IMG/VR virus record: IMGVR_UViG_3300046615_000261
Span: 32,001-96,000 of that record
Reading direction: 5' to 3' (one strand)
Length of the DNA: 64,000 bases
From: a virus
Taxonomy: Duplodnaviria > Caudoviricetes
Of the stretch, positions 45,106-59,239 are shown piece after piece (within the stretch, counting starts at the first letter, position 1; every line of letters starts with the position of its first letter). The position numbers were made by a program, and so were the translations under genes. Below the pieces are notes generated by a model. The model did no database searches. It was not told the origin of the DNA and saw nothing but the letters and a program-made list of their open reading frames with translations.

Positions 45106-45205
45106 GACCTTGATGAAAAGCGCTCGACGGGTCAACCGCGAGCGTACAATAGTGGTGGAGCGATTCGGTTATCCCGGGTGACCCGCGCGCGGGTGCAGGA
45201 GGAAC

Positions 45206-45244
45206 GTTACAATACACACATGCCGTCACATTACTTAGACGGCA
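45206..45244 (+). promoter_or_regulatory. GTTACAAT element plus leader hairpin upstream of gp55
   Basis: GTTACAAT 45206-45213; TGCCGTC-10 nt-GACGGCA ends 1 nt before ATG. Confidence 0.55.
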
Positions 45245-45245
45245 A

Positions 45246-45734
45246 ATGACCGAAACAACAACCAAGCCCAAGACAGTTAAGCCAGCCAAGAAAGAGCGTT
45301 CAAAGACCACCCAAGGTCATTACGTAAAGAACGCCGAGCTGCTCGCTGAATTCCATATCTGCAAAGCCAAGGGCGAGCTTTCCCCCCTGATGGCGAAGTA
45401 CCTGATGATGATCGCTGAACGGTACTCGTACCATCAGTGGTTCGCAGGATACTCTTTCCGTGAAGACATGGTTTGCACCGCTGTGGTGAATCTGTGTGCG
45501 AACTGGCATAAGTTCAATCCCGAGAAGTCCGATAATCCGTTCGCTTACTACACGACGGCCTGTTATCGCTCTTTCCTATCGTACCTTGACGCTGAAAAGA
45601 AAGAGCGTACGATTCGTGATGAACTCCTGATTGAAGCTGGCGCGAACCCGTCGTTCAACTATCAGGCTCGGCACGGTACTTCGGGTAAGACTTCTGATGA
45701 TACCGCATTCTCTGGCGGTGGTGGAGACGATTGA
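45246..45734 (+). CDS. gp55: Late-transcription sigma factor, T4 gp55-like
   Basis: HYVKNAELL, IAERYS..FAGYSFREDMV, FNPEKSDNPFAYYTTACY.SF. Confidence 0.9.
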   Translation: MTETTTKPKTVKPAKKERSKTTQGHYVKNAELLAEFHICKAKGELSPLMAKYLMMIAERYSYHQWFAGYSFREDMVCTAVVNLCANWHKFNPEKSDNPFAYYTTACYRSFLSYLDAEKKERTIRDELLIEAGANPSFNYQARHGTSGKTSDDTAFSGGGGDD

Positions 45735-45940
45735 TGATTCTCAAATACGGTTCATTTGACGATTACTGGAACGGAGACGGCGTTTACGTGTCTCTGCTCT
45801 GGAAGCGCGGTCACTTCCTGATCGGCGTTCGAAAGTGTCTGTTCGTTCTGCGAGCACTGAAGCCGCCAGGCAAGCCTGGTTATGCTCGCCTGTACATCGG
45901 GCCGTTCGAGTTTGAGGTAGCGCATGTCCACAAAGATTGA
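45731..45940 (+). CDS. Hypothetical protein (69 aa)
   Basis: Overlaps the gp55 stop. Confidence 0.55.
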   Translation: MMILKYGSFDDYWNGDGVYVSLLWKRGHFLIGVRKCLFVLRALKPPGKPGYARLYIGPFEFEVAHVHKD

Positions 45941-46742
45941 CGGGAACGGTTACTTCTCGCCAGGAATTGCGTACGGTCAGTGCAGACTTGTTTATACGAG
46001 TTCTAGCGCGATCACTCTGTTCCCGTACCTAGGGAACAAGCTCAGCATCGGCCCGAACGCCGACATTTACACGGTTCCTGATGCAGGTGTTACGTTGGCA
46101 CCTACTGGTCTAACGGCCGGTAGCACGTACAACATTTACGCGTACGCATCTGGCGCGAACATCGTGCTCGAAGCGTCATTGACTGCACGTGCGAAAGACA
46201 CCACGACCGGCATTGCGATCAAGACCGGCGATAACACTCGCACTCTGGTCGGTAAGGCGTACTGCCAAGCTGGTGTTACTTGGGACACGACGGTAGGTGC
46301 AAAGCTTGTGATCAGCTGGTTCAATCGTCGTCCAGTTATGGCGACGCAAAATCTGGCATCGAACGTAACGTTGACCTCTACCACACCGGTCGAGTTGAGC
46401 ACCCAGAACCGTTCGTACGGTCTGTGCTGGGGTGAAGACATCGTTGAAGCTCGCATGAGCGCAGTACTGAGTGGCGGAACACTGAACGTCGTGTACTATG
46501 GGAACGCCACTCTGCACGCGTCCGCTGGCGACACAGCTGGGAATAACTCGTATTTTCAGACAGCATTTGCTGGTCAGTACGGTTCGATGTACAGCACTGT
46601 GGTCGCTCAACCTGCCGAAACTCTTGGCCCGACGAACAATCTGGTCTGGTCGACGCAAATGTCGTGGCTGAACGCTGCTGGGACGTCAACGTTCTACTCG
46701 GGTGCAACGAACACGACGAGCACACTGATCATTCAGGGTTAA
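45924..46742 (+). CDS. Tail-fibre-domain-like protein
   Basis: GQCRL, YNIYAY, IKTGDNTRTLVG pattern seen in phage fibre domains; Thr/Ser/Ala-rich. Confidence 0.55.
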   Translation: MSTKIDGNGYFSPGIAYGQCRLVYTSSSAITLFPYLGNKLSIGPNADIYTVPDAGVTLAPTGLTAGSTYNIYAYASGANIVLEASLTARAKDTTTGIAIKTGDNTRTLVGKAYCQAGVTWDTTVGAKLVISWFNRRPVMATQNLASNVTLTSTTPVELSTQNRSYGLCWGEDIVEARMSAVLSGGTLNVVYYGNATLHASAGDTAGNNSYFQTAFAGQYGSMYSTVVAQPAETLGPTNNLVWSTQMSWLNAAGTSTFYSGATNTTSTLIIQG

Positions 46743-46763
46743 CCCGACCCTGATCTGAACAGG

Positions 46764-46819
46764 AATTGTAACGGCAGGGAGTTACAATTTGAACTGAGCT
46801 GTCTAATCCAAGCGACAGC
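46764..46819 (+). promoter_or_regulatory. Inverted repeat containing GTTACAAT plus leader hairpin upstream of gp47
   Basis: AATTGTAAC-8 nt-GTTACAATT; GCTGTC-10 nt-GACAGC ends 2 nt before ATG. Confidence 0.55.
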
Positions 46820-46821
46820 AC

Positions 46822-47874
46822 ATGACTTTGAAAACCCCTATGCGCCTCATGATGTTCACGGACATCCATTGGGGCGCACGTACAAACTCCGATCAGCATC
46901 TGCAGGACTGCCTCGATTACATCGACTGGTTCTGCAAGCTCGCGATCGAACAGGAAGCGACGCACATCGCATTCCTCGGTGACTGGTTCGAGAATCGGAA
47001 TCAGATCAACGTTCGTACCCTGAAGTACTCGCAAGAGGGCGCGCGTCGTCTGAACGCTCTCGGTCTGCCGATCTTCTTCATCGTCGGCAATCACGATCTG
47101 TACCATCGCTCGAATCGCTCGATCTACTCGACCGATCAGTTCGGTGACCTGAAGAACTTCATCATGGTGAATGAACCGGTCGAGATCAGTGACGAGATGT
47201 TCATGTCTCCGTTCCTGTTCAAGGACGAGTACCCTGCTCTAGCTGAGCAGATCAACTCACACAAGTACGTTCTCGGGCACTTCGAGTTCCGGAACTTCGT
47301 CGTTACCGGGAATGACCGAGTGCTCGATCACGGTCCTGACGCGTCGCTGTTCACTGGCCCGAAGTACCTCCTGTCTGGTCACTTCCACAAGCGCCAAGCA
47401 AGCAAGAACATCATCTACATCGGGAACACTTTCCCAACATCGTTCGGCGATGCTGGCGACAACGAACGTGGTGCCGCTCTGCTCGTGACCGACACTGAAG
47501 AACTGTCGTTCTTCAATTACGACGCGGCTCCTCTGTTCTTCAAATGCCGTCTCTCGAACGTTCTGGCCGGTGACGTGCAATTCACGCCCCGCGCTCGGGT
47601 ACGTTGTCTGCTCGATGCTGACGTACAGTACTCAGACGTACAAGCGTTGCGTGAAGAGATGATGACGGCGTTCGAACTCCGTGAGTTCTCCGTTGAAGAG
47701 GATCTGCAATCAAAGAAAGACTCGATCGCCTCGGGTCTCGAGATCGAGGGTGAACTCGATCTGTCATCGCTGGACGGCACGGTCCGCCAGCTGATCAATG
47801 AAGGCGTAACGCCAACCGCAACAATCGATCCGAGCATTCTGGTCGAACTGTACGAAGAACTTAAACTTGATTAA
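46822..47874 (+). CDS. gp47: Recombination nuclease subunit, T4 gp47/Mre11-like
   Basis: DIHWG, LGDWFE, VGNHD, GHFE, SGHFH metallophosphoesterase motifs. Confidence 0.92.
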   Translation: MTLKTPMRLMMFTDIHWGARTNSDQHLQDCLDYIDWFCKLAIEQEATHIAFLGDWFENRNQINVRTLKYSQEGARRLNALGLPIFFIVGNHDLYHRSNRSIYSTDQFGDLKNFIMVNEPVEISDEMFMSPFLFKDEYPALAEQINSHKYVLGHFEFRNFVVTGNDRVLDHGPDASLFTGPKYLLSGHFHKRQASKNIIYIGNTFPTSFGDAGDNERGAALLVTDTEELSFFNYDAAPLFFKCRLSNVLAGDVQFTPRARVRCLLDADVQYSDVQALREEMMTAFELREFSVEEDLQSKKDSIASGLEIEGELDLSSLDGTVRQLINEGVTPTATIDPSILVELYEELKLD

Positions 47875-47883
47875 GGAAGCAAA

Positions 47884-48423
47884 ATGACTTGCATCGTTGG
47901 TATTGAATTCAATGACAAGGTTCTGATGGGTGGCGACATCCAAGGGACCGGGTACAACAACAAGGTTGTGCACACGCAACCGAAGGTGTTCAACAAGAAG
48001 GGCGTTCTGTTCGGCTTCACGACCAGCTATCGCTTTGGCCAGCTCCTCGAGCACGGTCTTGCCGATCCAGTCGTTCCAGAAGACGACAATGAGATCTACC
48101 GTTGGCTGATCACTGTCCTGATTCCGGACATCAAGAAAGCGCTGAAGACCGGCGACTACGAAAAGGGTGGCACGTGTCTGATCGGCGTGAAGGGTCAGCT
48201 CTGGGAACTGCAAGACGACTTCAGTGTCTTGCGCTCTGTGAAGGGTTACACCGCTTGCGGCTCTGGCTATGAGTACGCAATGGGCTCGATGTTCACCACT
48301 GCAGGTCAACGCCCAAGCCTTAGCACCCAGCAAGAGTACACGAACGCAGTGAAAGCTGCGATCCTCACGGCCGGTACATTCAGCCCGTCCGTTGGTACCG
48401 ACTCCGTCGTCATTTCGAACTAA
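47884..48423 (+). CDS. HslV-like Ntn (threonine) peptidase
   Basis: N-terminal (M)TCIVG...MGGD and ACGSG. Confidence 0.75.
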   Translation: MTCIVGIEFNDKVLMGGDIQGTGYNNKVVHTQPKVFNKKGVLFGFTTSYRFGQLLEHGLADPVVPEDDNEIYRWLITVLIPDIKKALKTGDYEKGGTCLIGVKGQLWELQDDFSVLRSVKGYTACGSGYEYAMGSMFTTAGQRPSLSTQQEYTNAVKAAILTAGTFSPSVGTDSVVISN

Positions 48424-48426
48424 ACA

Positions 48427-50166
48427 ATGAGCTCCTCCCTTTATTTCCGCGAACTGTCGATTCGGAACTTCCTCTCGTTCGGCCAGAATGAAACGATCAT
48501 CGATCTGTCTGAGGCCGGTACGATTGAAGTCATTGGACAGAACTTGGACAAGGGCGGCTCGAACGGTTCAGGCAAGACGACGATCATCAACGCGATCTGC
48601 TACGCGTTGTACAACAAGCCGTTCGACAACATCTCGCTTCAGCGGCTGATCAACAGCACGAACGCGACGAAGAACACCTTGATGGAAGTGAAGCTTTCGT
48701 TCGAACGTGCTGGTGACGAGTACGAGATCACTCGTGTTCGTGGTGAGCATTACACGATCCGTCTGACGAAGAACGGTGAAGACATCACGCCAGGTAAGGG
48801 TGTTGCCGAGTGCGATGCCTTGATCGAGAGCGTGATCGGTATCAGCTACGAGTTGTTCACGAAGACGATCATCTTCTCGGGGAACGCGCAAGCTTTCCTC
48901 GAGCTGCCAGTCGCTCAGCAACGTCTGCAGATCGAAGAGCTGTTCAACATCACGTTGCTCTCTGAGAAGGCGAAGGTCCTTCGTGAGAACATCAAGGTCA
49001 CTGAAGGCGACATCAAGGTCCAGAAGGCCGTCGTGAAGCAGCAAGAAGTTGCTGTCGAGCTGTACAAGAAGCACATCACCGAAGCCGAGCAGCGAATCAC
49101 TAAGTGGGATCAGACTCGTCAGAAGGACATCGCCGAGATTGAGAACACTCTGGCAGTGGTCGGTACTGTTGACTTCGAACTGGAGCAGCTCTTGCACGAC
49201 GAGCGCTCGACGCTCGTTCAAGAAGGCGCGTACCTGGCTGCGAAGCTTGCTCCTGCCCGCAAGGATAATCAACAGCTTACTGCGGCTGTTGAGAAGCTTC
49301 TCGGCGAACAGGCTCATCTGGCTGACGCGACCTGCCCGTACTGTGCACAGAGTTTCGCCGATGCTCCAGCACGACTGGCAAAGATCGAAGACGAAATTGA
49401 TGTGAAGGGTAAGCTCCTGATCCAGGTCGAGGCTGATGTTCAATCACTGACCGAGAAGGCACGTGAACAGCAAGCGCGTCTGAAGGAAGTCGAAGCCGGT
49501 ATTCAGCACTCGAATCTGAACGAGCTCCTGTCTGCCCGTGAGAATGCATCTGTCCTTCGCACGAAGATGAACGATCTGAAGAACGCCGTGAATCCTCACG
49601 TCGAAGCTCTGGAACGCCTGCTTGCCGAAGACTGCAAGGAAGCCGATCATGCAAAGGTCGATGCCCTGCACAAGCGGCTCGAGCACATGCAGTTCCTGAT
49701 GAAGCTCTTGACGAACAAGGACTCGTTCCTCCGTCGCCGAATCATCAACAAGACGATTCCGTTCCTGAACGATCGAATCAACGGGTACACCGCTCAACTC
49801 GGGCTGCCACACATCGTTCGATTCGATGCTGACATGAGCTGCACGGTCTCTGAGTTCGGCCGTGAGCTGGACTTCGGTAATCTTTCAGCTGGTGAAAAGA
49901 AGCGAGTGAACGTCGGGCTGGCTCTTGCCTTCCGAGACGTGCTGCATCACATGCACGCGAAGTCGAATCTGATGCTGGTCGATGAACTCGACGGTCAGCT
50001 CGATGGTGGCGGTATTGATGCGGTGATTCGAATCATCAAGGACAAAGCCCGAGACGAAGAGATGTCCGTGTTCATTATCTCGCACCACCCGAACGTGTCT
50101 GGCCGACTGGATCGAACGCTTATCGTTTCGAAACAACATGGCTTCAGTACGATCAGCGACGGCTAA
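48427..50166 (+). CDS. gp46: Recombination ATPase subunit, T4 gp46/Rad50-like
   Basis: Walker A GSNGSGKTT, zinc hook CPYC, signature LSAGEK, Walker B LMLVDE. Confidence 0.93.
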   Translation: MSSSLYFRELSIRNFLSFGQNETIIDLSEAGTIEVIGQNLDKGGSNGSGKTTIINAICYALYNKPFDNISLQRLINSTNATKNTLMEVKLSFERAGDEYEITRVRGEHYTIRLTKNGEDITPGKGVAECDALIESVIGISYELFTKTIIFSGNAQAFLELPVAQQRLQIEELFNITLLSEKAKVLRENIKVTEGDIKVQKAVVKQQEVAVELYKKHITEAEQRITKWDQTRQKDIAEIENTLAVVGTVDFELEQLLHDERSTLVQEGAYLAAKLAPARKDNQQLTAAVEKLLGEQAHLADATCPYCAQSFADAPARLAKIEDEIDVKGKLLIQVEADVQSLTEKAREQQARLKEVEAGIQHSNLNELLSARENASVLRTKMNDLKNAVNPHVEALERLLAEDCKEADHAKVDALHKRLEHMQFLMKLLTNKDSFLRRRIINKTIPFLNDRINGYTAQLGLPHIVRFDADMSCTVSEFGRELDFGNLSAGEKKRVNVGLALAFRDVLHHMHAKSNLMLVDELDGQLDGGGIDAVIRIIKDKARDEEMSVFIISHHPNVSGRLDRTLIVSKQHGFSTISDG

Positions 50167-50169
50167 ATA
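50164..50169 (+). promoter_or_regulatory. Late promoter box TAAATA
   Basis: Overlaps the gp46 TAA; 22 nt before ATG 50192. Confidence 0.65.
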
Positions 50170-50191
50170 GCCGTTATACAATGGACTGATC

Positions 50192-51019
50192 ATGAAACTC
50201 TCCGAAATCAAAGCCCCAAAGAAGGACGAAGTCGTTCGCGACTCACAAGGTCGACCACTGCGTGGTCTCGCCAAGGAACGTGCTCTGCAGCAGCGGAAAC
50301 TCGACAAGAACTTCAAGGACTACGATATCAAGGATCATCGGATCGGGGTCGCAAAGGTCGTGAAGGAAGCAGCAATCAAGGAACTGGACAAAATTGCTGC
50401 CGAGCGCTTCGGCAGCTTTGGGTTCGCTGATCTAGAAGAAGACCAGGCAGCGCGACTGATCTACATCGAACGCGCGAACAAAATCGCTGAAAAGGAGTTT
50501 GGTGAGTTCGGTCTTATGTCATGCAACGCCACTGAAATTGCGCAGATCATTAACGCCAATCCTGCGCTGATTAAGAAGGTGAACGAAGAAGAGCTCGAAT
50601 CAAAGACTGCAGAGGACCTGTGGTCGGAGAACTCGAGCTCTGCCTCGAAGTACATCAGCACGGCGACTTATCAGGTCCGTCCAATCAAGGACAGCAAGCC
50701 AGTGAAGTACGAAGCTTTCTCTGTGATCAGCACGACGCGGAAGCCGTACGGCACGTTCACAGCTGACGAGCTGAACGCAGCCCTGAAGCCGATCCGTCCG
50801 AATCAGACTCCTGACGCTGAAGGATTCACGACGTACATCGACCCTGTGAAGGTCGACGCGTTCCAGTACTCTGGTGACCCAGTGAAGGTTGATCTCGGCA
50901 AGGGTGATATTCAGACAGCCGACGATAGCGACTACATTGTTCGCACTGTTGACGGGAACAACTTCGTGTACCGCATTGAAGAAGCCGGTGACTTTGAAGC
51001 TGGACTGAAGAAAGCCTGA
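50192..51019 (+). CDS. Unknown late protein, MKLSEIK leader
   Basis: Leader; internal duplication KIAAERFGSFG / KIAEKEFGEFG; VKEA and VNEE motifs. Confidence 0.7.
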   Translation: MKLSEIKAPKKDEVVRDSQGRPLRGLAKERALQQRKLDKNFKDYDIKDHRIGVAKVVKEAAIKELDKIAAERFGSFGFADLEEDQAARLIYIERANKIAEKEFGEFGLMSCNATEIAQIINANPALIKKVNEEELESKTAEDLWSENSSSASKYISTATYQVRPIKDSKPVKYEAFSVISTTRKPYGTFTADELNAALKPIRPNQTPDAEGFTTYIDPVKVDAFQYSGDPVKVDLGKGDIQTADDSDYIVRTVDGNNFVYRIEEAGDFEAGLKKA

Positions 51020-51021
51020 TC

Positions 51022-51798
51022 ATGAAACTTGCCGATCTATTCGAGGCAGTCGTCTCCGATTCTGCCCAAGCACTCAAACTTCTTGGTCTCGCATCCGATG
51101 CGTCCATGACCGACGTGAAGGCTTCATACCGCAAGCTTGCGCAAAAGCTTCATCCTGACAAGAATGACGGCAGCGCTGAAGCTACCGAGAAGATGAAGAT
51201 GGTCAATGCGGCGAATGACTTCCTACTGAAGCATGGGTTGTCAAAGGCGACAGCTTCAGCCCAGCCTCCTGCAGAGGATGTGAAGTTCACCAAGGAAGGC
51301 ATCAAAGAGGTCGACGATAAGCTAGAAGTGATTCTTAAGAATCCGGCATGGTTCGACAAGAAGGGCCGCTCAAAGTACATTGGACCAGTTCTTTTTGCAC
51401 GTGAGCGCCTCAAGGTTGCCGAACAGCTGATCGAAATTCTCCCAGCGTACGAAGCTGTCATGAAGAAGATCGTTGCCTCTTGGAAGAATCGTTTCGAGAA
51501 GCCAGAACCTTTCAAGGCTGCAGCGAAGGAATTTGAAGAGTTCTTCAAAGAACATAAGCCAAATGATCTTCAAGCCCTTCTTAATCGCATTGCAAAGAGA
51601 CAGCGCACAGCAGGGTGCACCTACCTTAAGGTGGAAACCCCACTTCGTAACAAGGTCAGCGACGAGCTCAGCGAGATCCTGAGTTCTCGTGAGAAGATCA
51701 AGGAAGCGGTAGTTGCAGTGGACAGAACTCCTGAGCAACGTGAACGTGCTGCGAAGGCTTCTGCTCGAATGAAAGCTCAGTGGGGTTCGACTTTTTAA
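51022..51798 (+). CDS. J-domain (DnaJ-like) protein, MKLADLFEA leader
   Basis: LLGL...DVKASYRKLAQKLHPDKN with intact HPD. Confidence 0.85.
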   Translation: MKLADLFEAVVSDSAQALKLLGLASDASMTDVKASYRKLAQKLHPDKNDGSAEATEKMKMVNAANDFLLKHGLSKATASAQPPAEDVKFTKEGIKEVDDKLEVILKNPAWFDKKGRSKYIGPVLFARERLKVAEQLIEILPAYEAVMKKIVASWKNRFEKPEPFKAAAKEFEEFFKEHKPNDLQALLNRIAKRQRTAGCTYLKVETPLRNKVSDELSEILSSREKIKEAVVAVDRTPEQRERAAKASARMKAQWGSTF

Positions 51799-52673
51799 TG
51801 AAGCTCTCTGAAATCAAACTCTTTGAGGCGCCACTCGCTGACGTCTCGTACCACAAAGCTGCAACGACTGGATCGTTCTCCGCGAGCGACTTGAAGCTGA
51901 TCAAGAAGTACATGGAGAGCGGTCACTACAAGGACAAGCTCAAGGGCCTGCCTTTTGATCTGTACTTGTACATCGTAGACAACGGTGACGAGGGTGCAGC
52001 AGCGGCAGACAGCTATCCTGAGGGTGAAGTCATTCCGTCGATCTGGAAAGATCAGACGCGCAAGCTTTATCACAAGACCGACAGAGAGCGGATTGAGGGT
52101 GGCTATGAGCCTGATCCTGACGGTCTGGACTTCAGCGTTCAGCCATTCCCAGCGATTTTCGCGGCTGTTCGTGAACGAATTCAGAAGAATCCGAACAGCG
52201 TGCACTTCTTGCTTGGCGACAACTACTCAGATGAGCACCAGATGGGTGTGACACCGTGGATCGTCGCGCACAGACTCTGCCATTGCTATTCTGTTGGTGG
52301 CGGTGTGAGCGTCCCGCCTGAGTTGATCGCAGCGTACAAGAAGAAGAAGGGCATTCCAGCAGGCGAAGCGTTCACTGCAGGCTGGAAGGCTCTGCAAGCT
52401 TCACTGACATTCAAGAGCGCAAAGTCGAACAAGCTTATTGAGTCTGAAACCTCCGTCGAAATGAACGCGCAGTTCCTTGTCACTGGAGATATTCCACTTG
52501 ATCTTCCTGCGTACAGCGCGAAACTGAAGGAGCTCAGCGACGTCAGTGGTTTCACTCTGACCGATGATGAAATCGTTCAGCAGACTGAGATCTGGAACAA
52601 TGAAGTTAGCGAGTTCAAGGATCGCTGCAAGAAGGCCGCTGAACGTATTCGCGGCAAAGTGTTCTACGTGTAA
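51798..52673 (+). CDS. Unknown late protein, MKLSEIKLFEA leader
   Basis: TAATG coupling, start 51798; TPWIVAHRLCH motif. Confidence 0.7.
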   Translation: MKLSEIKLFEAPLADVSYHKAATTGSFSASDLKLIKKYMESGHYKDKLKGLPFDLYLYIVDNGDEGAAAADSYPEGEVIPSIWKDQTRKLYHKTDRERIEGGYEPDPDGLDFSVQPFPAIFAAVRERIQKNPNSVHFLLGDNYSDEHQMGVTPWIVAHRLCHCYSVGGGVSVPPELIAAYKKKKGIPAGEAFTAGWKALQASLTFKSAKSNKLIESETSVEMNAQFLVTGDIPLDLPAYSAKLKELSDVSGFTLTDDEIVQQTEIWNNEVSEFKDRCKKAAERIRGKVFYV

Positions 52674-52687
52674 GCTCCGGGGGCTGA

Positions 52688-52693
52688 TAAATA
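52688..52693 (+). promoter_or_regulatory. Late promoter box TAAATA
   Basis: Only 4 nt before ATG 52698, possibly leaderless. Confidence 0.5.
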
Positions 52694-52697
52694 CAGG

Positions 52698-53099
52698 ATG
52701 CAAAGTCCTGTATCCCCGAAGCTCAAATCCAAAGACGTGAAGAAGACACGCCTTGCACTCCTCGAGTCGCAAGGTTTCAAGTGTGCTATCTGTCAACTCC
52801 CATGTGATGAAGAGCAAGCCGTTCTAGATCACTGCCACAAAGGCGGTTGGATCAGAGCGGTCCTGCACCGTGCCTGCAACGCAGCCGAAGGTAAAGTGAT
52901 GAACTCCCTTCGTCGGTACGGTATCAAGGATCCACAGAACTTCTTGCGTGAATTGATGAAGTACCATGAGGTTCATGCTACTAATCAGACCGGGTTGATA
53001 CACCCGCTGCACTTCACTCCTGAAGAGAAGCTCGAGCGCTCGAAGGCGAAAGCCAAGAAAGCTCGGGCGAAAGCCAAAGCTGCTAAGTCAGCACAATAA
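52698..53099 (+). CDS. gp49: Recombination endonuclease VII (Holliday junction resolvase, gp49-like)
   Basis: CAIC...LDHCH...IRAVLHRACNAAEGK. Confidence 0.88.
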   Translation: MQSPVSPKLKSKDVKKTRLALLESQGFKCAICQLPCDEEQAVLDHCHKGGWIRAVLHRACNAAEGKVMNSLRRYGIKDPQNFLRELMKYHEVHATNQTGLIHPLHFTPEEKLERSKAKAKKARAKAKAAKSAQ

Positions 53100-53114
53100 C
53101 TGAAAAGAGACTCT

Positions 53115-53708
53115 ATGACAGAACTTCCGCGCTGGACAGTGCGGCTTAATGCGACACGTCCAACTCCTGACTACCATGACCTGATCGCAATTGTTGCTCA
53201 GCACTATCACACGTACGTGTCTGCTGAGAACTTCCTTGCTCCGTACAACGCACGGGAACGATCGAAGTCTTTTTATACTCCGCCCGATCGTGAAACCCTG
53301 AAGCAGGTCGTGAAACAAGGTGGCATGAATAACGCCTCGTACTTCGCTCTCCTGAACGGCCTGATCAAGTTCTGCGAGACCACAAAAGGCATGCGCGCTC
53401 TTGCTGCTCCCCACCCAAGCACGATCCATTCGATTCAGGTTCCCCAACCTGCGTTTGAGTTGGTCGAGACGGCTCAAGACTGTACAATGGGAACTCATCA
53501 GCTCACTGTGCCAGGTGCTGAACCGATCTATCTGAAAGGCGTCCGCAATCCGGAGTCGATCAGGTTCGTGATCGTTCGCCCGAAGCTCAGTCAGTTGGGT
53601 ACTCCATCAGCCAAGGAGTGGGAAGCATTGCTGTTCAATCAGAACTACGGATACGTTCCGAACTGGGTGGACAGCACGTTGAACACTCGCTGGGCTGGCA
53701 AGTTTTAA
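53115..53708 (+). CDS. Hypothetical protein, possibly TnpB N-lobe-like without RuvC
   Basis: Architecture resembles TnpB WED/REC; weak, by eye. Confidence 0.4.
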   Translation: MTELPRWTVRLNATRPTPDYHDLIAIVAQHYHTYVSAENFLAPYNARERSKSFYTPPDRETLKQVVKQGGMNNASYFALLNGLIKFCETTKGMRALAAPHPSTIHSIQVPQPAFELVETAQDCTMGTHQLTVPGAEPIYLKGVRNPESIRFVIVRPKLSQLGTPSAKEWEALLFNQNYGYVPNWVDSTLNTRWAGKF

Positions 53709-53723
53709 CCTGAAGAACTGACA

Positions 53724-53936
53724 ATGAACGCAAAGATCGCAAAGCAACTCCGTCGTATCGCCCGTGGCATGGTTGTTGCCGCTGAAGCTGAAGCCGCACC
53801 GAAGGGTCCGGAAGCAACTGGCAAACCTCTCTCGATCAAGAAGGTCGCTTACCAGCAGAACCAAAAGGGCACGATCAGCGTGGCGAAGAACACGTACAAG
53901 GGTGCGTACAAGGCGCTGAAGGCCGGCACTCTGTAA
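53724..53936 (+). CDS. Small basic hypothetical protein
   Basis: MNAKIAKQLRRIAR...; Lys-rich. Confidence 0.7.
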   Translation: MNAKIAKQLRRIARGMVVAAEAEAAPKGPEATGKPLSIKKVAYQQNQKGTISVAKNTYKGAYKALKAGTL

Positions 53937-53939
53937 CTC

Positions 53940-54410
53940 ATGGGCAAGATCAAGAATAATTCGATTCCGGTCGGATATCAGATCCAAGTTCAATCGTGGG
54001 AAGGTGACGCAGATCGCTACCACACGTGTACCCTGAGCGGGCTGACCTCTCACGAGGTCGACTTTATCGCGTTCATCGTTCGACACTTTCGATCGGTGAA
54101 CGCGATGACCAAGCCTGGCCTTGGGAACATGTACGTTCATGGTTGGCAGTTGAAGCAACTGATCGACGAAGCGACCGTGAAGTTCGGCGTGCCGCAATCG
54201 CAGAGCATGCAGTACTTCGTGTTCGACGAAGAAGATGAGTACAAGGAAGATCACGCGTACAGCATGATCAGCACGCTGCTCGGCGAGGTCCAGTACACTG
54301 GCGACTACTCCGGGTATGCGCCCGATAAGCACTTCTGCCGCGTGTTTGATCTATTTGTGGTGTACGAGTACGAAGCTCCGGTCAAGGACGTTACGAAGCG
54401 ATTCACCTGA
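53940..54410 (+). CDS. Hypothetical protein (156 aa)
   Basis: Contiguous ORF. Confidence 0.7.
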   Translation: MGKIKNNSIPVGYQIQVQSWEGDADRYHTCTLSGLTSHEVDFIAFIVRHFRSVNAMTKPGLGNMYVHGWQLKQLIDEATVKFGVPQSQSMQYFVFDEEDEYKEDHAYSMISTLLGEVQYTGDYSGYAPDKHFCRVFDLFVVYEYEAPVKDVTKRFT

Positions 54411-54430
54411 TCCGCCTCCGGGTGTATAAT
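54402..54430 (+). promoter_or_regulatory. Sigma70-like promoter
   Basis: TTCACC-17 nt-TATAAT. Confidence 0.55.
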
Positions 54431-54452
54431 GCCACATCACCTGGAGGTTTCT

Positions 54453-54965
54453 ATGGACATGCGTGATTCGAGTTGGTACCGTGGGTGCACCAAAGCACGG
54501 CGTGGTTTTGGTGCACGTCGCTTGGAGCTGATCGAAAAGCTCTGGGAAGAGCAGAACCTGCTCACGCACCTGATCATTCAGGGTCAGGCTTCTGGCCGCA
54601 CGCCAGCAGAGCTGGAGCTGGTCAAGAAAGGCATCGACGCGCTCAGGGTCGAGCTCGATGAGATCACGCTTCCGAAGGACGTGCGCTCGAAGCGCGAGAT
54701 CTGGATCGAGGAAACTCAGCTCCAGCGGAACGTCGCGAACCTTCCGAAAATCTCTGACGCTGCTCTCGGCGCAGAGTACGATCGTGATCTCGAAGAGCGG
54801 GTCTGGGCGAAGAAGATCCGCAAAGAGCGAAAGACCGATCACCCGGGCGGCGAGCTCGGGCTGATCGCAGATGGCATCCTCGGAGATCGCAAAGTACGTG
54901 AAGTGCTCCTTGGCGATATTCCGTTCGGCGTTCACCGTGACAAGACCGTACAAACTAAGCGCTAG
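54453..54965 (+). CDS. Hypothetical helical protein upstream of the polymerase-like gene
   Basis: SD GGAGG, ATG 54453 (MDMRDSSWY); the ATG at 54429 lies inside the -10 box. Confidence 0.7.
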   Translation: MDMRDSSWYRGCTKARRGFGARRLELIEKLWEEQNLLTHLIIQGQASGRTPAELELVKKGIDALRVELDEITLPKDVRSKREIWIEETQLQRNVANLPKISDAALGAEYDRDLEERVWAKKIRKERKTDHPGGELGLIADGILGDRKVREVLLGDIPFGVHRDKTVQTKR

Positions 54966-56190
54966 AACGCTCCTTCACCCTCAGCACCCGCTGCACTGGA
55001 CTCGGTTCTGGCCGGACCTGCAGCGGTTGCATCGGACGCGCGTCGAAGCTCGCCAAGACCTTGTGCTCTGGCTGGCGAATCTGTACCACGGCGCGATCCA
55101 CTGCGGGAAACCGCTCGGCTTCTGCTCGATCCAAGTTCGCTTGATGGACCTCCGCGAGTGGGTCCGCGACTACAAACCCGCGCTCGATCATTTCTTCGAA
55201 GTGAAGCAGCTCGGTTTCCATTTCGACGAAGACAACACCGAGCTCACGACCCTCGTTCCGAGGAAGCTCCCGCCTGAGGAGCTGAACATCGTGGGCGAGA
55301 CGGCCGAGTCCCTGAGGTACGAGCCTCCGGTGGTGCCGGTGCACTCCGTTATTTCGAAGGTGTACCTATCACCGGGGCTGGACCATAAGAGCCTGGTGGC
55401 CCGGGTGTTGGTCCATGGCCGCCCTGAGCTCGTACCCCAGTTGAACTGGCTCCTGAAGCAGGGGCAGACCGAGCTGAACTTCCATTTCCAGCCGAGCGGG
55501 AAGCTAAAGCAGCGGGACACGAGTGTCTGGCCGATCGCTGCAATCGAGACGTGGCCGTCCTGGCTGCGTGAAGAGCTGTTCGGCCCCGGGATCGATCTCG
55601 ACTCGGCGTACGTGCAGTTCCTGATGCACCACCTGAAGGTCGTGTTCAAGGGTCGAGACACGCTGATGCAGACCCTGTTCCCAGACTTGATTCGACTGCT
55701 GGAAGACAAGGAAAATTTCCGCAAGGAATTATGCACACAAGTTCTCCAGCGGCCGTACAACGAGAAGTACCGATCGCTGATCAAGCAGGTCGTGATGAGT
55801 CTGGCGAACGGTTCGAAGATCAGCCCGGCCCTGCTCACGAACGGAGGCGGGTTCAGCCTGACTGCTGAACTGATCGTCGATGCTGCTCCGGACGCGACGA
55901 TCTCGGACTTGACAGCAATTGGAGAACGACTGAAACGGATCGCAGATCAGTTCGCTTCGGCTCGACGGTACGCATGCATGGATCTGCTGAAAAAATCGCC
56001 AACGCGGAAAAACGTGAAGCAGGTTTTTAGCGGGTATTTTTCGTGGGAAAGAAAAGCGCGGTACGCGTTATGGGAAGAAGTCGGGCGGCACGGGATCATG
56101 GTTCATGACGGGCTGGACGGGGTCCCGAAGGATCAGCTCGCCCGTCTTCCGGAGTTGATCAAGAGCCTGGATCTGAAGCTGACCGCGTAG
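54871..56190 (+). CDS. Small superfamily-A / T7-RNAP-like nucleotide polymerase
   Basis: Motif A GIDLDSAYVQF, motif B RSLIKQVVMSLANGSK, motif C MVHDG; start codon uncertain. Confidence 0.65.
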   Translation: MASSEIAKYVKCSLAIFRSAFTVTRPYKLSARTLLHPQHPLHWTRFWPDLQRLHRTRVEARQDLVLWLANLYHGAIHCGKPLGFCSIQVRLMDLREWVRDYKPALDHFFEVKQLGFHFDEDNTELTTLVPRKLPPEELNIVGETAESLRYEPPVVPVHSVISKVYLSPGLDHKSLVARVLVHGRPELVPQLNWLLKQGQTELNFHFQPSGKLKQRDTSVWPIAAIETWPSWLREELFGPGIDLDSAYVQFLMHHLKVVFKGRDTLMQTLFPDLIRLLEDKENFRKELCTQVLQRPYNEKYRSLIKQVVMSLANGSKISPALLTNGGGFSLTAELIVDAAPDATISDLTAIGERLKRIADQFASARRYACMDLLKKSPTRKNVKQVFSGYFSWERKARYALWEEVGRHGIMVHDGLDGVPKDQLARLPELIKSLDLKLTA

Positions 56191-56234
56191 GCGCGAATTT
56201 AGAGGCATTAGGTGGCAGATAGCGGCCGGTTCCG

Positions 56235-56240
56235 TAAATA
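56235..56240 (+). promoter_or_regulatory. Late promoter box TAAATA
   Basis: 35 nt before ATG 56276. Confidence 0.65.
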
Positions 56241-56275
56241 CGGCTGCTATCCTCACAACATTACCGGACACCACA

Positions 56276-57712
56276 ATGGATAAATTCAATTTCGGCAAGC
56301 TGCGCGCGCTGGCTTCCGGCCAAAAGCTCGACGAAGCCAAAACCAAGTACCGCGCCGTAGAAGACTACGAGAAGAACGACGGCACTTGGCATGTCCTTGA
56401 CGACAAGGACAATCAAGACTCCCGCGGTATGCCAGAGTTCGAAGCGAAAGAACGTGCTGAATACCTGAACACCGGTATCCGCAAAGAGCGTCCAGTCTCT
56501 GCGCCTGTAAAGCGCGTAAAGCCAGGCGTCGTCAAGGAAGGCGTTTCGGACGCTGAGGACGTGTTCAATCGTCTCGAAGGCATCGCCAAGAATGGTATTG
56601 ACGCACGAGATGCAGAGAATATCAAGAAAGACATCGCCACCAAGCTCAAGCAAGGTTGGACTGCAACCGAAATCGTTTCGTACGTCCGTTGGACCGAAGA
56701 AATCAATCCTGACATCGAAGAAGATGAAGCGCTTGCAAAGATGAAGCGCGTCAAGACGGTCGTCCAAGATCGCCTCGGCAAGAAGGTTGACGAAGCGAAG
56801 GCCGACGAGCCAGAGAAGAAGATGTCGTGCCCAGGTTGCACCAAGAACGGTAAGAAGCTGTTCAGCAAGTTCACCGTGAACGCTGGTGCATGGTCCTGCG
56901 CTGATTGCGGCTGGGTGAAGGAAATGACCAAGACCGAAAAGAAGTCGCTCAAGGAATCAGCCTTGAACGAAGCCACGCACGAGACGAGCCTTGCAGATGA
57001 CGACACGACTGGCAAGTCCCCCGAGCAGACCGCTCAGTGGTTGGCCAAGAAGTTCAAAGTGCAAGTGAAGCTCATTGACGCTAACCCAAAGCACTCTGGC
57101 GGCTGGCCAATCTACGCGTTCACCGGTTCGGACGAAGCTATCAAGAAGCTCACGACGTACATCGGTGAACAAGACCTGAATGAATCAACCAAGGAAACTA
57201 AAATGAACGAAAGCATCAACAAGGCCCGCGCCCTCGCAGGTCTCCCACCAATGAAGCTCGTCGAAGCTGCTCCAGTCATGGAAGCAGGCGATGCAGCGAT
57301 CCTCGCGAAGGTCAAGGAAATCGGCAATGGCGGTTACATGGACCAGATCATTGTTCGCGCAGTGAAGCAACGCCTGGAATCCGGCAAGGAATCCGGCTTT
57401 GAGCACCCAGCGATTGTTCAAGCTGACAAGGTCATCAAGGCCCTCGGCCTGAAGGTCAAGGTCGCTGAAGCTGTCGTGACTGAAGGTACCGCTGGTCACT
57501 TCATGGAGCCAAGCGTTGGCCAAACCGGATCGATGCTTGTTCTTGACGACAACGCAGTCGTGAAGAAGCTTGCTAAGGTTCTCGGCCTTGATAGCGACTG
57601 GGTCCTGAAGGACATCGGCTCCGGTCTGTTCGCTGCGTACAACAGTGGCGATCGTCTCTCGATCTTCACGAACAAGAGCGACTACGTTGACGATCACCCA
57701 GACGCTGAGTAA
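56276..57712 (+). CDS. Probable internal head polyprotein (478 aa)
   Basis: 11 (L/V/M)xE(A/S/G) motifs, two RALA(S/G) motifs, CPGC..CADC zinc ribbon. Confidence 0.6.
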   Translation: MDKFNFGKLRALASGQKLDEAKTKYRAVEDYEKNDGTWHVLDDKDNQDSRGMPEFEAKERAEYLNTGIRKERPVSAPVKRVKPGVVKEGVSDAEDVFNRLEGIAKNGIDARDAENIKKDIATKLKQGWTATEIVSYVRWTEEINPDIEEDEALAKMKRVKTVVQDRLGKKVDEAKADEPEKKMSCPGCTKNGKKLFSKFTVNAGAWSCADCGWVKEMTKTEKKSLKESALNEATHETSLADDDTTGKSPEQTAQWLAKKFKVQVKLIDANPKHSGGWPIYAFTGSDEAIKKLTTYIGEQDLNESTKETKMNESINKARALAGLPPMKLVEAAPVMEAGDAAILAKVKEIGNGGYMDQIIVRAVKQRLESGKESGFEHPAIVQADKVIKALGLKVKVAEAVVTEGTAGHFMEPSVGQTGSMLVLDDNAVVKKLAKVLGLDSDWVLKDIGSGLFAAYNSGDRLSIFTNKSDYVDDHPDAE

Positions 57713-57742: not shown

Positions 57743-57821
57743 GAAACGACTGAGGGACCCTAGGGTCCCTCTTTTGTTAGCTAAACACCGATCAGAACCG
57801 GTGTCTCTGAGTGTCGCTCAG
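57743..57821. terminator. Second (inverted) copy of the 70-bp terminator element
   Basis: GAGGGACCCTAGGGTCCCTC at 57752-57771 followed by TTTT; between convergent genes. Confidence 0.8.
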
Positions 57822-58120: not shown

Positions 58121-58149
58121 GTGTTCTCCTAGTCGGGATCAGGATTGTA

Positions 58150-58380
58150 TCACAACCCGAGACCGCCGAACGGGCTCTTCGATGCTGCCTCAATCCGCTT
58201 GTTGATACTTTCGATCACCAGGTCACGTTCGAACGCAGACATGTTCAAGGCCGTCTCGTACGGCACGCCACCACGGGTGTACGTAGCGATGTCGATCGCG
58301 GCCTGAATCAGGCCCTTGATTTCAATCTGCATTCGATCGATCATCTGAACGATTCTGGTGTGATCGCCAGTCAGAATCAT
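58150..58380 (-). CDS. Baseplate hub assembly protein, gp51-like
   Basis: PYETALNMSAFERDLVIESINKR; follows the gp26-like gene. Confidence 0.6.
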   Translation of the reverse strand: MILTGDHTRIVQMIDRMQIEIKGLIQAAIDIATYTRGGVPYETALNMSAFERDLVIESINKRIEAASKSPFGGLGL

Positions 58381-59165: not shown

Positions 59166-59182
59166 CAGTGTCGCCTTCGATC

Positions 59183-59188
59183 TAAATA
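59183..59188 (+). promoter_or_regulatory. Late promoter box TAAATA (tape measure)
   Basis: 51 nt before ATG 59240. Confidence 0.55.
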
Positions 59189-59199
59189 TGGAACCTACC

Positions 59200-59205
59200 T
59201 ATTTA
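59200..59205 (-). promoter_or_regulatory. Late promoter box TAAATA (gp26-like)
   Basis: 34 nt before ATG 59165. Confidence 0.6.
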
Positions 59206-59239
59206 CGGGCTTTAGAAAAGCCCCTCTCGGGACCACTGG

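Follow-up and report, generated by a model that had tools for sequence, protein, structure and literature searches.

A predicted minimal family-A-type polymerase, encoded beside recombination genes, in uncultivated jumbo T4-like phages

A giant phage of the T4-like type, uncultivated and originating from rhizosphere soil, has in its genome a single copy of a gene for a 417-residue protein whose predicted fold resembles the cores of DNA polymerase I (Pol I) and T7 RNA polymerase (RNAP), without proofreading (54937..56190, + strand; positions are those of the window, i.e., the whole 64,000-nt stretch of phage DNA analyzed here). On balance, we lean toward the view that this protein is a catalytically competent, exonuclease-free minimal polymerase of the family-A/T7 RNAP/TV-Pol superfamily, which would serve as an accessory enzyme for DNA synthesis during recombination or repair. 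The gene was delineated from its open reading frame (ORF), the starts of its homologs, the structural model, and fold matches. The initial annotation had described a stand-alone polymerase of about 400 aa in an ORF at 54871..56190 (+). That frame is indeed open (439 aa counted from ATG), but the true start is most likely GTG 54937 rather than ATG 54871, because approximately 250 homologous sequences, 414-418 aa in length, have an N-terminus reading MT(R)PY, and initiation at ATG 54871 would add 22 residues that are present in no homolog.

The predicted structure of the polymerase has a pLDDT of 91.7. When it was compared with the PDB by Foldseek, the best 50 matches were all family-A DNA polymerases (probability 0.84-1.0, best E value 1.3e-3), and every one of the best 16 VIA matches (Z 9.6-5.7) was either a family-A DNA polymerase or a T7-like RNA polymerase; among them were Pol theta at Z 9.6, Klenow at 9.5, mitochondrial RNAP at 8.4, and T7 RNAP at 7.9, each of these four alignments covering about 245 residues over positions 134-417. 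N4 RNAPII was also among the VIA matches (Z 5.4), and the nearest models in AFDB and BFVD include SF3-helicase fusions, replication proteins of the virophage V13-like kind, and TV-Pol-type proteins fused to a helicase. A fold search of the ESM Atlas returned nothing useful. The feature search of the same resource returned unnamed phage clusters, the nearest named cluster being DNA_pol_A (score 0.78).

In the model, an RRM-type palm is present with fingers inserted past strand beta1 and with a beta-hairpin and thumb before it; RRM-only fold matches begin at residue 216-217. The N-terminal globular domain (residues 1-133; 54937..55335, +; domain model pLDDT 88) holds a conserved FF..Q.G[FY] motif and, when searched alone, showed no recognized fold (best VIA Z 4.3, nothing by Foldseek). 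Many weak winged-helix rows (Z 3.1-3.6) were seen in its VIA results. Downstream of this domain are a two-helix thumb-like unit and a beta-hairpin (55336..55530, +; H150-159, H163-173, E179-187, and E193-198 by DSSP), and the start of the second hairpin strand carries an Arg (R215 in ORF numbering, 55513-55515) that is invariant in 26 relatives. The order of elements (hairpin Arg, short helix, motif A strand, fingers, and motif C hairpin) is that of family-A DNA polymerases, whose members (Klenow/Taq/Bst, Pol theta, Pol nu, and T7 DNAP) are the best fold matches (Z 9.6-8.0). However, the phage protein differs from them in having no 3'-5' exonuclease domain or relic, a thumb of only two short helices, Asn for the O-helix Tyr, and Gly for the motif C Glu, and it is not matched by Pfam DNA_pol_A.

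Motifs A, B, and C, whose positions are assigned here as predictions from secondary structure and conservation, lie on the expected elements of the model, in agreement with the earlier proposal of a stand-alone minimal polymerase of the PolA/T7 RNAP/TV-Pol superfamily; the motif starts given at that time are exact (IDLDSAY at 55591, RSLIKQVVMSLANGSKI at 55771, and VHDG at 56101). Motif A (G-I-D-L-D-S-A-Y-V-Q; 55588..55617, +) covers strand E219-221 and leads into helix 224-236, its invariant Asp, D242 (ORF numbering; 55594-55596), being placed by the model on palm strand beta1. Tyr or Phe occupies D+5, the Pol I steric-gate position, and an invariant Gln occupies D+7, as in T7 RNAP. Motif B, recognized by its conservation and by an O-helix-like helix (residues 276-290; motif at 55771..55821, +), contains invariant Lys K305 and Gly G314, and the Tyr-Gly of Pol I and T7 RNAP is replaced by Asn-Gly. 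The Asn, N313, which takes the O-helix Tyr position, is nearly invariant (Met in two members), and the Arg of the RxxxK pattern (R301, four residues before K305) is not conserved, many members having K, L, I, N, or S in its place; either of these features could alter or lower templated synthesis. Motif C (M-V-H-D-G-L-D-G; 56098..56121, +) has an invariant His-Asp (D413, ORF numbering) at the turn of the modeled palm beta-hairpin, where strands E387-389 and E392-394 flank H390/D391. In the 26 relatives, which extend down to 21% identity, the invariant residues are R215, D242, Q249, R284, K305, G314, W392, E393, R397, H412, D413, and G417, and conserved residues coincide with the expected secondary-structure elements of the model. 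The predicted positions of the two metal-binding Asp residues, D242 closing the motif A strand and D413 in the motif C turn, fit those of a polymerase; the O-helix Lys is present, and the C-terminal Tyr-Gly of family A reads Asn-Gly.

Residues 627-643 of T7 RNAP (V01146), RSVTKRSVMTLAYGSKE, are identical to RSLIKQVVMSLANGSKI at 10 of 17 positions, which reproduces the match reported in the initial annotation with Asn opposite Y639, and this Asn proved to be conserved across the family. The match is the top ungapped 17-mer match anywhere between the polymerase and T7 RNAP, and none of 500 query shuffles reached 10 identities (the best value, 9, occurred in 4 of 500 and, in a separate run, in 1 of 60). 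Both motif A (D-x6-Q) and motif B are nearer to T7 RNAP than to Pol I, a point against any firm assignment of dNTPs as the substrate.

Sequence searches provided no link to polymerases. The protein had no match in Pfam (E<=1) or PHROGs, an HMM search of the PDB gave a chance match only, and neither blastn nor tblastn found one among 50,697 phage records. Across the whole phage genome, the DNA_pol_A model (PF00476) had no match; neither had the RNA_pol model (PF00940), a result that is uninformative because the control likewise went unmatched. The family HMM detected nothing in the genomes of T7, N4, and Ma-LMM01, the last of which is reported to encode a TV-Pol. Comparisons by hhalign with T7 RNAP alone, T7-like RNAPs, N4 RNAPII gp16, and divPolA2 all gave Prob <=2.5%, none significant. 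Against the T7-like RNAP alignment (Prob 1-2.5%), motif B was aligned rightly and motifs A and C wrongly; the T7 RNAP profile was shallow because the homolog search yielded only relatives with at least 74% identity. The best local piece against N4 RNAPII gp16 was its motif B, at a value that is not significant. The family alignment reached Prob 0.3% against a six-member divPolA2 alignment and 1.1% against AUR84708, and no divPolA2-related loci were found in IMG/VR. Alignment of motifs A-C to the polymerase palm, which the initial annotation had set as the critical test, was thus not obtained with sequence profiles but was obtained at the level of fold.

Two kinds of extra, stripped-down family-A polymerases, divPolA1 and divPolA2, were recognized only in 2024 in phages that also have a replicative polymerase. 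The present family was compared with divPolA2, a PolA that has diverged in barbaviruses, Vibrio phage ICP1, and their relatives and for which a role as a repair DNAP or RNAP was proposed (Yutin et al. 2024, Virol J 21:200, PMC11348598). Both are approximately 415-435 aa in length, begin with an N-terminal globular domain of no recognized fold followed by PolA palm and fingers, lack an exonuclease and a normal thumb, are encoded beside a regular PolB, and have structural matches to both DNA and RNA polymerases. However, the motifs of divPolA2 are of the Pol I type (D-Y-K-A-F-E, R-x3-K, an aromatic residue past the helix, and [HF]-D-[EDS]), whereas those of the present family read D-L-D-S-A-Y-V-Q, K-x3-M-S-L-A-N-G-S, and H-D-G-x-D-G; there is no detectable profile similarity between the two, and the neighborhoods of divPolA2 are variable, in contrast to the fixed synteny observed here. 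The present family would be a third group of extra minimal phage family-A polymerases, unrelated in sequence to divPolA1 and divPolA2. It also resembles the TV-Pol family of predicted primase-polymerases (Iyer, Abhiman and Aravind 2008, PMC2579912) in its minimal family-A core, short thumb, hairpin Arg, two palm Asp residues, small fingers, and lack of a nuclease domain. On the other hand, it has neither fusion to nor proximity of a D5/SF3 helicase, no integrase or resolvase-transposon context, no conserved small partner gene directly beside it, and no conserved Arg in the RxxxK pattern that TV-Pols have in the first fingers helix; moreover, the gene belongs to the fixed core of a phage clade and not to a mobile element. 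CCPol of SCCmec, a member of the TV-Pol family, requires the small MP protein for priming with dNTPs (Bebel et al. 2020, PMC7581432); in this type of primase (Bebel et al. 2020; Rice 2023) the gene for a small ssDNA-binding partner with an OB fold lies between those for the polymerase and a helicase, an arrangement not seen in the phage locus, where no helicase adjoins and the neighboring ORF is variable. T7-like RNAPs share with the phage protein the palm and fingers fold, the motif B match, D-x6-Q in motif A, and HD plus a small residue in motif C, but T7 RNAP is more than twice as large and has Tyr (Y639), part of the RNAP-type motif B pattern K-x-x-V-M-T-x-x-Y-G-S, where Asn is found here; moreover, the N-terminal domain has no match in T7 RNAP, and neither N-terminal promoter-binding elements, such as those for AT-rich recognition and the intercalating hairpin, nor a specificity loop is evident in the model.

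The polymerase is accessory, extra to a T4-type replisome, because the phage encodes its own PolB, a Toprim primase (an ORF of 345 aa, below Pfam's cut-off), and a DnaB-type helicase (DnaB_C), the primase gene adjoining the helicase gene. The gene neighborhood of the polymerase, described below, is shared by relatives with 24-84% identity and recurs at 66 IMG/VR loci, where nearly all polymerase matches are full-length and the remainder are cut by contig ends. In our view, the polymerase gene has been passed on by vertical descent and belongs to the core of a deep clade of T4-like jumbo phages, all uncultivated, that are related to Ralstonia phage RsoM2USA. It is absent from RsoM2USA itself, the nearest cultured relative, in which the syntenic gap contains no remnant (tblastn) and no Rfam family, implying that the gene is dispensable for that lineage.

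On one side, the polymerase gene is flanked by gp47/gp46-type (SbcD/SbcC, Mre11/Rad50-like) recombination nuclease genes (46822..50166, +), which head the same-strand cluster, by an Endonuclease VII gene (gp49-type resolvase; 52698..53099, +; Pfam 7e-16, PHROG 6e-38), whose position is taken by a PDDEXK_15 nuclease in other relatives, and by a gene for a conserved 197-aa protein (53115..53708, +); a baseplate hub gene lies on the other side. Examination of 10 annotated and 66 IMG/VR loci revealed gp47/gp46, a Holliday-junction resolvase, the 197-aa protein, and baseplate/portal genes as neighbors, and no helicase or integrase was found among them. This synteny with recombination genes may merely reflect T4-type gene order. 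Of the 66 related loci, 47 encode the 197-aa protein upstream of the polymerase, at distances from 7 nt to 2.6 kb. The protein has no Pfam, PHROG, PDB, or Atlas match; complex prediction for the two proteins scored 0.00, which gives no verdict and weighs neither way. The + strand cluster holding the polymerase gene ends at a strong bidirectional terminator-like hairpin (57752..57771, +; an 8-bp stem in which 6 pairs are GC, and then a T run), and the T4 late promoter TATAAATA has no match in the window.

Directly upstream, a 170-aa ORFan (54453..54965, +) overlaps the start of the polymerase gene by 29 nt. It has a GGAGG 5 nt ahead of its ATG (54453) and the best codon usage among the six frames, and the only homolog found besides itself was one 53-residue match in one related locus; it is probably a real gene confined to this phage lineage. 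The initial annotation had viewed its product as a helical partner of the polymerase, co-transcribed from a sigma70-like promoter of their own. The partnership is not borne out: no homolog of the ORFan lies beside any relative of the polymerase, the slot is hypervariable, and the adjoining ORF changes from locus to locus, so that it is not a conserved polymerase partner. As to the promoter, a site is present ahead of the ORFan (TTCACC-17-TATAAT; 54402..54430, +; 10/12 consensus) but is not significant by itself, since the scan gave 2 sites with 1.7 expected by chance. The search for a nearby replication origin, also suggested earlier, found no iterons or origin-like repeats near the polymerase gene.

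These data bear on several other readings of the gene. Its product could be a DNA-dependent RNA polymerase of the single-subunit type and of very small size, or an enzyme making RNA primers, of the T7/N4 RNAPII lineage, whose task might be the transcription of a special set of phage genes or the production of primers or R-loops, although we consider this rather unlikely. Its motif B is of the RNAP type (K-x-x-V-M-[ST]-L-A-x-G-S), with the 10/17 identity to T7 RNAP not reached in 500 shuffles, and in the hhalign comparison with N4 RNAPII gp16 the best local piece is again motif B; motif A has D-x6-Q as in T7 RNAP, and the HD plus small residue of motif C resembles T7 HDS. Furthermore, mitochondrial and T7 RNAPs score within about 1.5 Z of the best DNA polymerases, with N4 RNAPII at Z 5.4. 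However, Y639 of T7 RNAP, which reads the 2'-OH, corresponds to Asn, and the helix register suggests an aromatic residue at the position of T7 RNAP Gly542 and of the Pol I steric-gate Glu. Motifs B and C are only about 100 residues apart, a spacing that would seem too short to house a specificity loop; Pfam RNA_pol is unmatched, the hhalign values are not significant, and a putative gp55 (ORF at 45246 according to the initial sequence reading) implies that host RNAP serves the late genes. An RNA polymerase role has also been raised for divPolA2 (Yutin et al. 2024). It is doubtful that the T7 RNAP lineage has in the 417-aa protein its smallest self-contained single-subunit polymerase, acting as a de novo RNA polymerase or primase; if this were true, the Asn-for-Tyr O-helix would represent a new mode of nucleotide selection or translocation.

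It appears quite improbable that the protein is a primase-polymerase of the TV-Pol/CCPol type that begins DNA chains de novo, whether at a phage origin or on intermediates that are stalled or arise in recombination, with a separate DNA-binding partner. The 197-aa protein, encoded beside the polymerase in 47 of 66 loci, is a candidate for such a partner, the nearest models include virophage V13-like and helicase-fused TV-Pol-type proteins, and some TV-Pols, which are predicted primase-polymerases, have an adjacent stand-alone partner; CCPol primes with dNTPs only when given MP. Nevertheless, the phage has its own Toprim primase beside a DnaB-type helicase, and recombination nuclease genes adjoin the polymerase gene in place of a helicase, integrase, or resolvase-transposon context; the directly upstream ORF is not conserved, no iterons lie nearby, the family HMM drew a blank in the Ma-LMM01 genome, and the TV-Pol RxxxK Arg is not conserved. 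The presence of a separate primase, helicase, and PolB, the lack of origin-like repeats, and the recombination nuclease neighbors likewise weaken the role in priming, primase-like or at an origin, that the initial annotation had proposed. A polymerase-derived protein that no longer polymerizes, acting as a DNA-binding or structural factor or as a template-independent nucleotidyl transferase, is in our view very unlikely. The lost O-helix Tyr and variable RxxxK Arg would be compatible with it, and RRM-only relics without catalytic residues have been described (Rice 2023), but the metal-binding Asp pair, motif B Lys, hairpin Arg, and motif C His are invariant down to 21% identity, a pattern expected of an active site under selection.

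In the reading that we favor, that of an active accessory polymerase, the enzyme would consist of an N-terminal domain of about 130 aa, a very short thumb, a hairpin bearing the invariant Arg, a palm of the RRM type whose motifs A and C each supply an Asp, and small inserted fingers that contain the motif B Lys. It would most likely act as a helper polymerase of low processivity that makes short stretches of DNA in recombination-dependent replication or repair. We infer this role because the gene belongs to the gp47/gp46-resolvase-197-aa protein cluster and because, at the position of the Pol I steric gate, its product has an aromatic residue. What the data show is the predicted fold, the conserved catalytic positions, the synteny, and the accessory status; polymerase activity and a preference for dNTPs are presumed.

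Among jumbo phages of soil and rhizosphere, the family has remained a core gene across deep divergence. It joins a Pol I-like minimal scaffold to T7 RNAP-like motifs A and B, and it has a conserved Asn where T7 RNAP, Pol I, N4 RNAPII, and divPolA2 have Tyr. As far as we are aware, none of the extra family-A polymerases of phages has been assayed. The present family might help to establish what constitutes the superfamily's minimal catalytic unit and might reveal how the choice between DNA and RNA is encoded, and at 417 aa the protein is a candidate small polymerase for biotechnology. It might also reveal which task a T4-type replisome hands to a helper enzyme.

The reading frame at 54871-56190 (+ strand) is open over 439 codons counted from its ATG, but the true start of the polymerase is most likely GTG 54937, giving a product of 417 aa, because approximately 250 homologous sequences are 414-418 aa long and begin with MT(R)PY; the 22 codons upstream of this GTG are conserved in none of the relatives. 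The motifs reported in the initial annotation lie exactly where it placed them (IDLDSAY at 55591, RSLIKQVVMSLANGSKI at 55771 and VHDG at 56101), and its comparison with T7 RNA polymerase (RNAP) was reproduced: RSLIKQVVMSLANGSKI and RSVTKRSVMTLAYGSKE, the latter being residues 627-643 of the enzyme in the T7 genome record and corresponding to T7 motif B, share 10 of 17 residues, with Asn opposite Y639. As this is the best pair among all ungapped 17-residue windows of the two proteins and no shuffled query (60, then 500 shuffles) reached 10 identities (maximum 9), the match exceeds chance.

Sequence profiles did not extend this similarity. No match to the polymerase was found in the Pfam or PHROG families, in the PDB (searched with a profile of 62 relatives) or, as DNA or protein, in a collection of 50,697 phage records, and the family HMM did not match the genomes of T7, N4 or Microcystis phage Ma-LMM01. 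Comparison of the family profile by hhalign with T7 RNAP alone and an alignment of T7-like RNAPs (probability <=2.5%), with N4 RNAPII gp16, and with divPolA2, both as its representative AUR84708 and as an alignment of six members assembled from phage records, was not significant in any case, and motif B was the piece placed in these non-significant alignments to both T7 RNAP and N4 RNAPII. The expectation that a profile search would align motifs A, B and C to the polymerase palm thus failed at the level of sequence (hhalign and HMM), whereas it was borne out by the fold.

The AlphaFold2 model built on the family alignment is confident (mean pLDDT 91.7, pTM 0.84), and the best 50 Foldseek matches in the PDB are all family-A DNA polymerases (best E 1.3e-3, probability 0.84-1.0). 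In the VIA structure search, the matches included Pol theta (Z 9.6), Klenow (Z 9.5), mitochondrial RNAP (Z 8.4), T7 DNAP (Z 8.1), T7 RNAP (Z 7.9), N4 mini-vRNAP (Z 5.7) and N4 RNAPII (Z 5.4, rank 18), with about 245 residues aligned within model residues 134-417. Bare RRM domains rank below these polymerases, and their alignment, which begins at residue 216-217, marks the palm core in the model. The closest predicted structures are uncharacterised phage proteins; SF3-helicase fusions come next, together with virophage replication proteins (from Zamilon and the Qinghai Lake virophage) and palm proteins annotated as family A. As judged from the model, this is the neighborhood of the TV-Pols.

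In the model (417-aa numbering), residues 1-133 form an N-terminal globular domain. Next come a pair of short helices (150-159 and 163-173) and a beta-hairpin with strands at 179-187 and 193-198, then a short helix (208-215) with a three-residue strand (219-221). A further helix (224-236) precedes an insert made up entirely of helices (241-381), after which a second beta-hairpin (387-389 and 392-394), two helices and the last strand complete the chain. Pol I has its elements in the same order, from the Arg of the hairpin through the short helix and the strand of motif A to the fingers and the motif C hairpin. Modelled by itself (pLDDT 88), the N-terminal domain did not clearly resemble any structure in the fold search (best Z 4.3); many weak matches (Z 3.1-3.6) are winged-helix DNA-binding domains, which may hint at such a fold.

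Conservation was read from an alignment of 26 relatives, down to 21% identity, and residues were assigned from this conservation together with the secondary structure of the model and the match in motif B. In ORF (439-codon) numbering, the invariant residues are R215 in the hairpin, D242 in the motif A strand, Q249, R284, K305 and G314 in the motif B helix, W392, E393, R397, and H412-D413 with G417 in the motif C turn. N313 varies only in two relatives, which have Met, whereas R301, the Arg needed for an RxxxK motif, lacks conservation. Five residues after the motif A Asp (D+5), in the first turn of the next helix, family members carry Tyr or Phe in place of the steric-gate Glu of Pol I and the Gly of T7 RNAP; the Gln at D+7 is common to the family and T7 RNAP. 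Since all catalytic positions are invariant over such deep divergence, the protein very probably has nucleotidyl transferase activity of the family-A type.

The family is large and tight: clustering at 90% identity gives it 253 representatives, and when 1.84 billion representatives at 50% identity were searched exhaustively, only 40 were found. IMG/VR contains 66 polymerase loci on contigs of up to 368 kb, with full-length matches in nearly all. Near-identical DNA is present in several rhizosphere metagenomes, and the source record is 234.5 kb in length. By portal, the nearest cultured phages are all jumbo phages: Ralstonia RsoM2USA (49% identity), Xanthomonas XacN1 and Xoo-sp13, Stenotrophomonas CM1 and Agrobacterium Atu_ph07.

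T4-type genes in the region encode the gp47/gp46 nuclease (46822-50166), a J-domain protein (51022), Endonuclease VII (52698), a gp26-like hub (58377, minus strand) and the gp20 portal (62108). The gene order is constant in all relatives examined, those at 24-38% identity included: gp47 and gp46, a junction nuclease (Endonuclease_7 or PDDEXK_15), the family of a 197-aa protein, a variable slot, the polymerase, two genes on the opposite strand (one of 76 aa and that of the hub), and a large gene with the portal gene. The genes in 45246-57712 all share one strand, and their cluster is closed by a strong hairpin (57752) resembling a terminator, which places the polymerase in a DNA-metabolism cluster rather than in the virion block. 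In RsoM2USA, the neighbors are kept and the exact place of the gene is occupied by a 1.4-kb stretch (L016:8523-9923, MG752970.1 251624-253024) with the GC content of its surroundings, no ORF >77 aa, no detectable polymerase remnant and no Rfam family.

The 197-aa protein (53115-53708, + strand), encoded directly after the resolvase gene, has no match in Pfam, PHROG, PDB or Atlas; its family, conserved over the full length, lies 5' of the polymerase in 47 of the 66 loci at distances of 7 nt to 2.6 kb, and the motifs HS.Q, RPK, WE.L and GY....D..N are strongly conserved. At the Holliday-junction resolvase position after gp46 (compared at 52698-53099 and, in related loci, L005:2980-3531, L012:5481-6083, L013:300-848 and L014:5366-5905), some relatives carry Endonuclease_7 and others a PDDEXK_15 nuclease, as if non-orthologous genes had displaced one another at a constant position. 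In another related locus, an Intein_splicing domain annotated inside Portal_T4 (L007:10374-11251, 953-aa product) suggests that the portal protein contains an intein.

The initial annotation also proposed a helical partner co-transcribed from a sigma70-like promoter. This 170-aa ORFan (54453-54965, + strand) most likely starts at ATG 54453, 5 nt after GGAGG, ends 29 nt inside the polymerase gene and has gene-like codon usage. Among 5.8 billion proteins it matched none but itself, its likeness in the 66 related loci is confined to one 53-residue stretch at one locus, and its place before the polymerase gene is taken by other, unrelated small genes in the closest relatives. The slot (54410-54937) is hypervariable, with unrelated ORFs of 61-284 aa across loci L006, L007, L004, L005 and L017-L082. 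A conserved partner is therefore not what the slot holds: because the ORFan lacks other homologues and the slot varies from locus to locus, it is, by sequence comparison, a lineage-specific insert and not a conserved subunit. The promoter site is present (TTCACC-17-TATAAT, 54402-54430, + strand), but such sites are no commoner than chance predicts. Occupied here by an ORFan with its own SD and sigma70-like site, the slot looks like a moron-type insertion site. The 478-aa gene 3' of the polymerase (56276-57712) has no homologue at the equivalent position in relatives, and L006 carries an unrelated 387-aa gene there, so the downstream slot is variable too.

A recurring TACAAT element (GTTACAAT, TATACAAT, GATACAAT) was observed 15-35 nt before gp55, gp47, a 275-aa gene and a 100-aa minus-strand gene (45190-45245, 46770-46821, 50160-50191 and 58121-58160 on the minus strand); most genes in this region lack an obvious SD. 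TAAATA elements, possibly late promoters, occur 5' of endoVII (~52685) and the 478-aa gene (~56240), and each of the two genes that diverge from the hub/952-aa intergenic region (59166-59239) is preceded by such an element as well. A complete T4 box, TATAAATA, does not occur within the window.

TV-Pols were defined as family-A polymerases pared down to a minimal core that contains RxxxK, two Asp and an Arg in the hairpin, with linkage to D5 helicases or to genes of transposons (Iyer et al. 2008, PMC2579912), and SCCmec CCPol, bound to a small OB-fold protein, primes with dNTPs (Bebel et al. 2020, PMC7581432; Rice 2023). A primase-polymerase of this style is a possible reading of our protein; however, the phage encodes its own primase, and the polymerase locus has neither a helicase nor a conserved adjacent partner. 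Additional diverged PolAs, divPolA1 and divPolA2, have been described in phages with a regular polymerase, and divPolA2 matches our protein in architecture and size and raises the same question of DNA or RNA polymerase (Yutin et al. 2024, PMC11348598). Considering that the motifs of divPolA2 are Pol I-like and differ from those of our family, and that its genomic position is variable whereas that of our family is fixed, we regard the family as divPolA2-like in kind but as a separate sequence family.

The genome encodes a family-B DNA polymerase (934-aa frame) and, adjoining a DnaB-type helicase, a Toprim ORF of 345 aa that Pfam matches weakly and below its cut-off, so the T4-type replisome is complete without the gene for the 417-aa polymerase, which is accessory to this replisome. 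Its processivity is expected to be low, as it has no proofreading and almost no thumb (cf. the thumb truncations in Rice 2023). The main rival reading, a small RNA polymerase or a maker of RNA primers, is supported by the T7-like motifs A and B and by fold scores for RNA polymerases that are only slightly below those for DNA polymerases. Two inferences, from the fixed place beside the Mre11/Rad50-like nuclease and resolvase and from the aromatic residue at the steric-gate position, suggest but do not prove the reading that we favor, a helper DNA polymerase that would act in recombination-dependent replication or repair.
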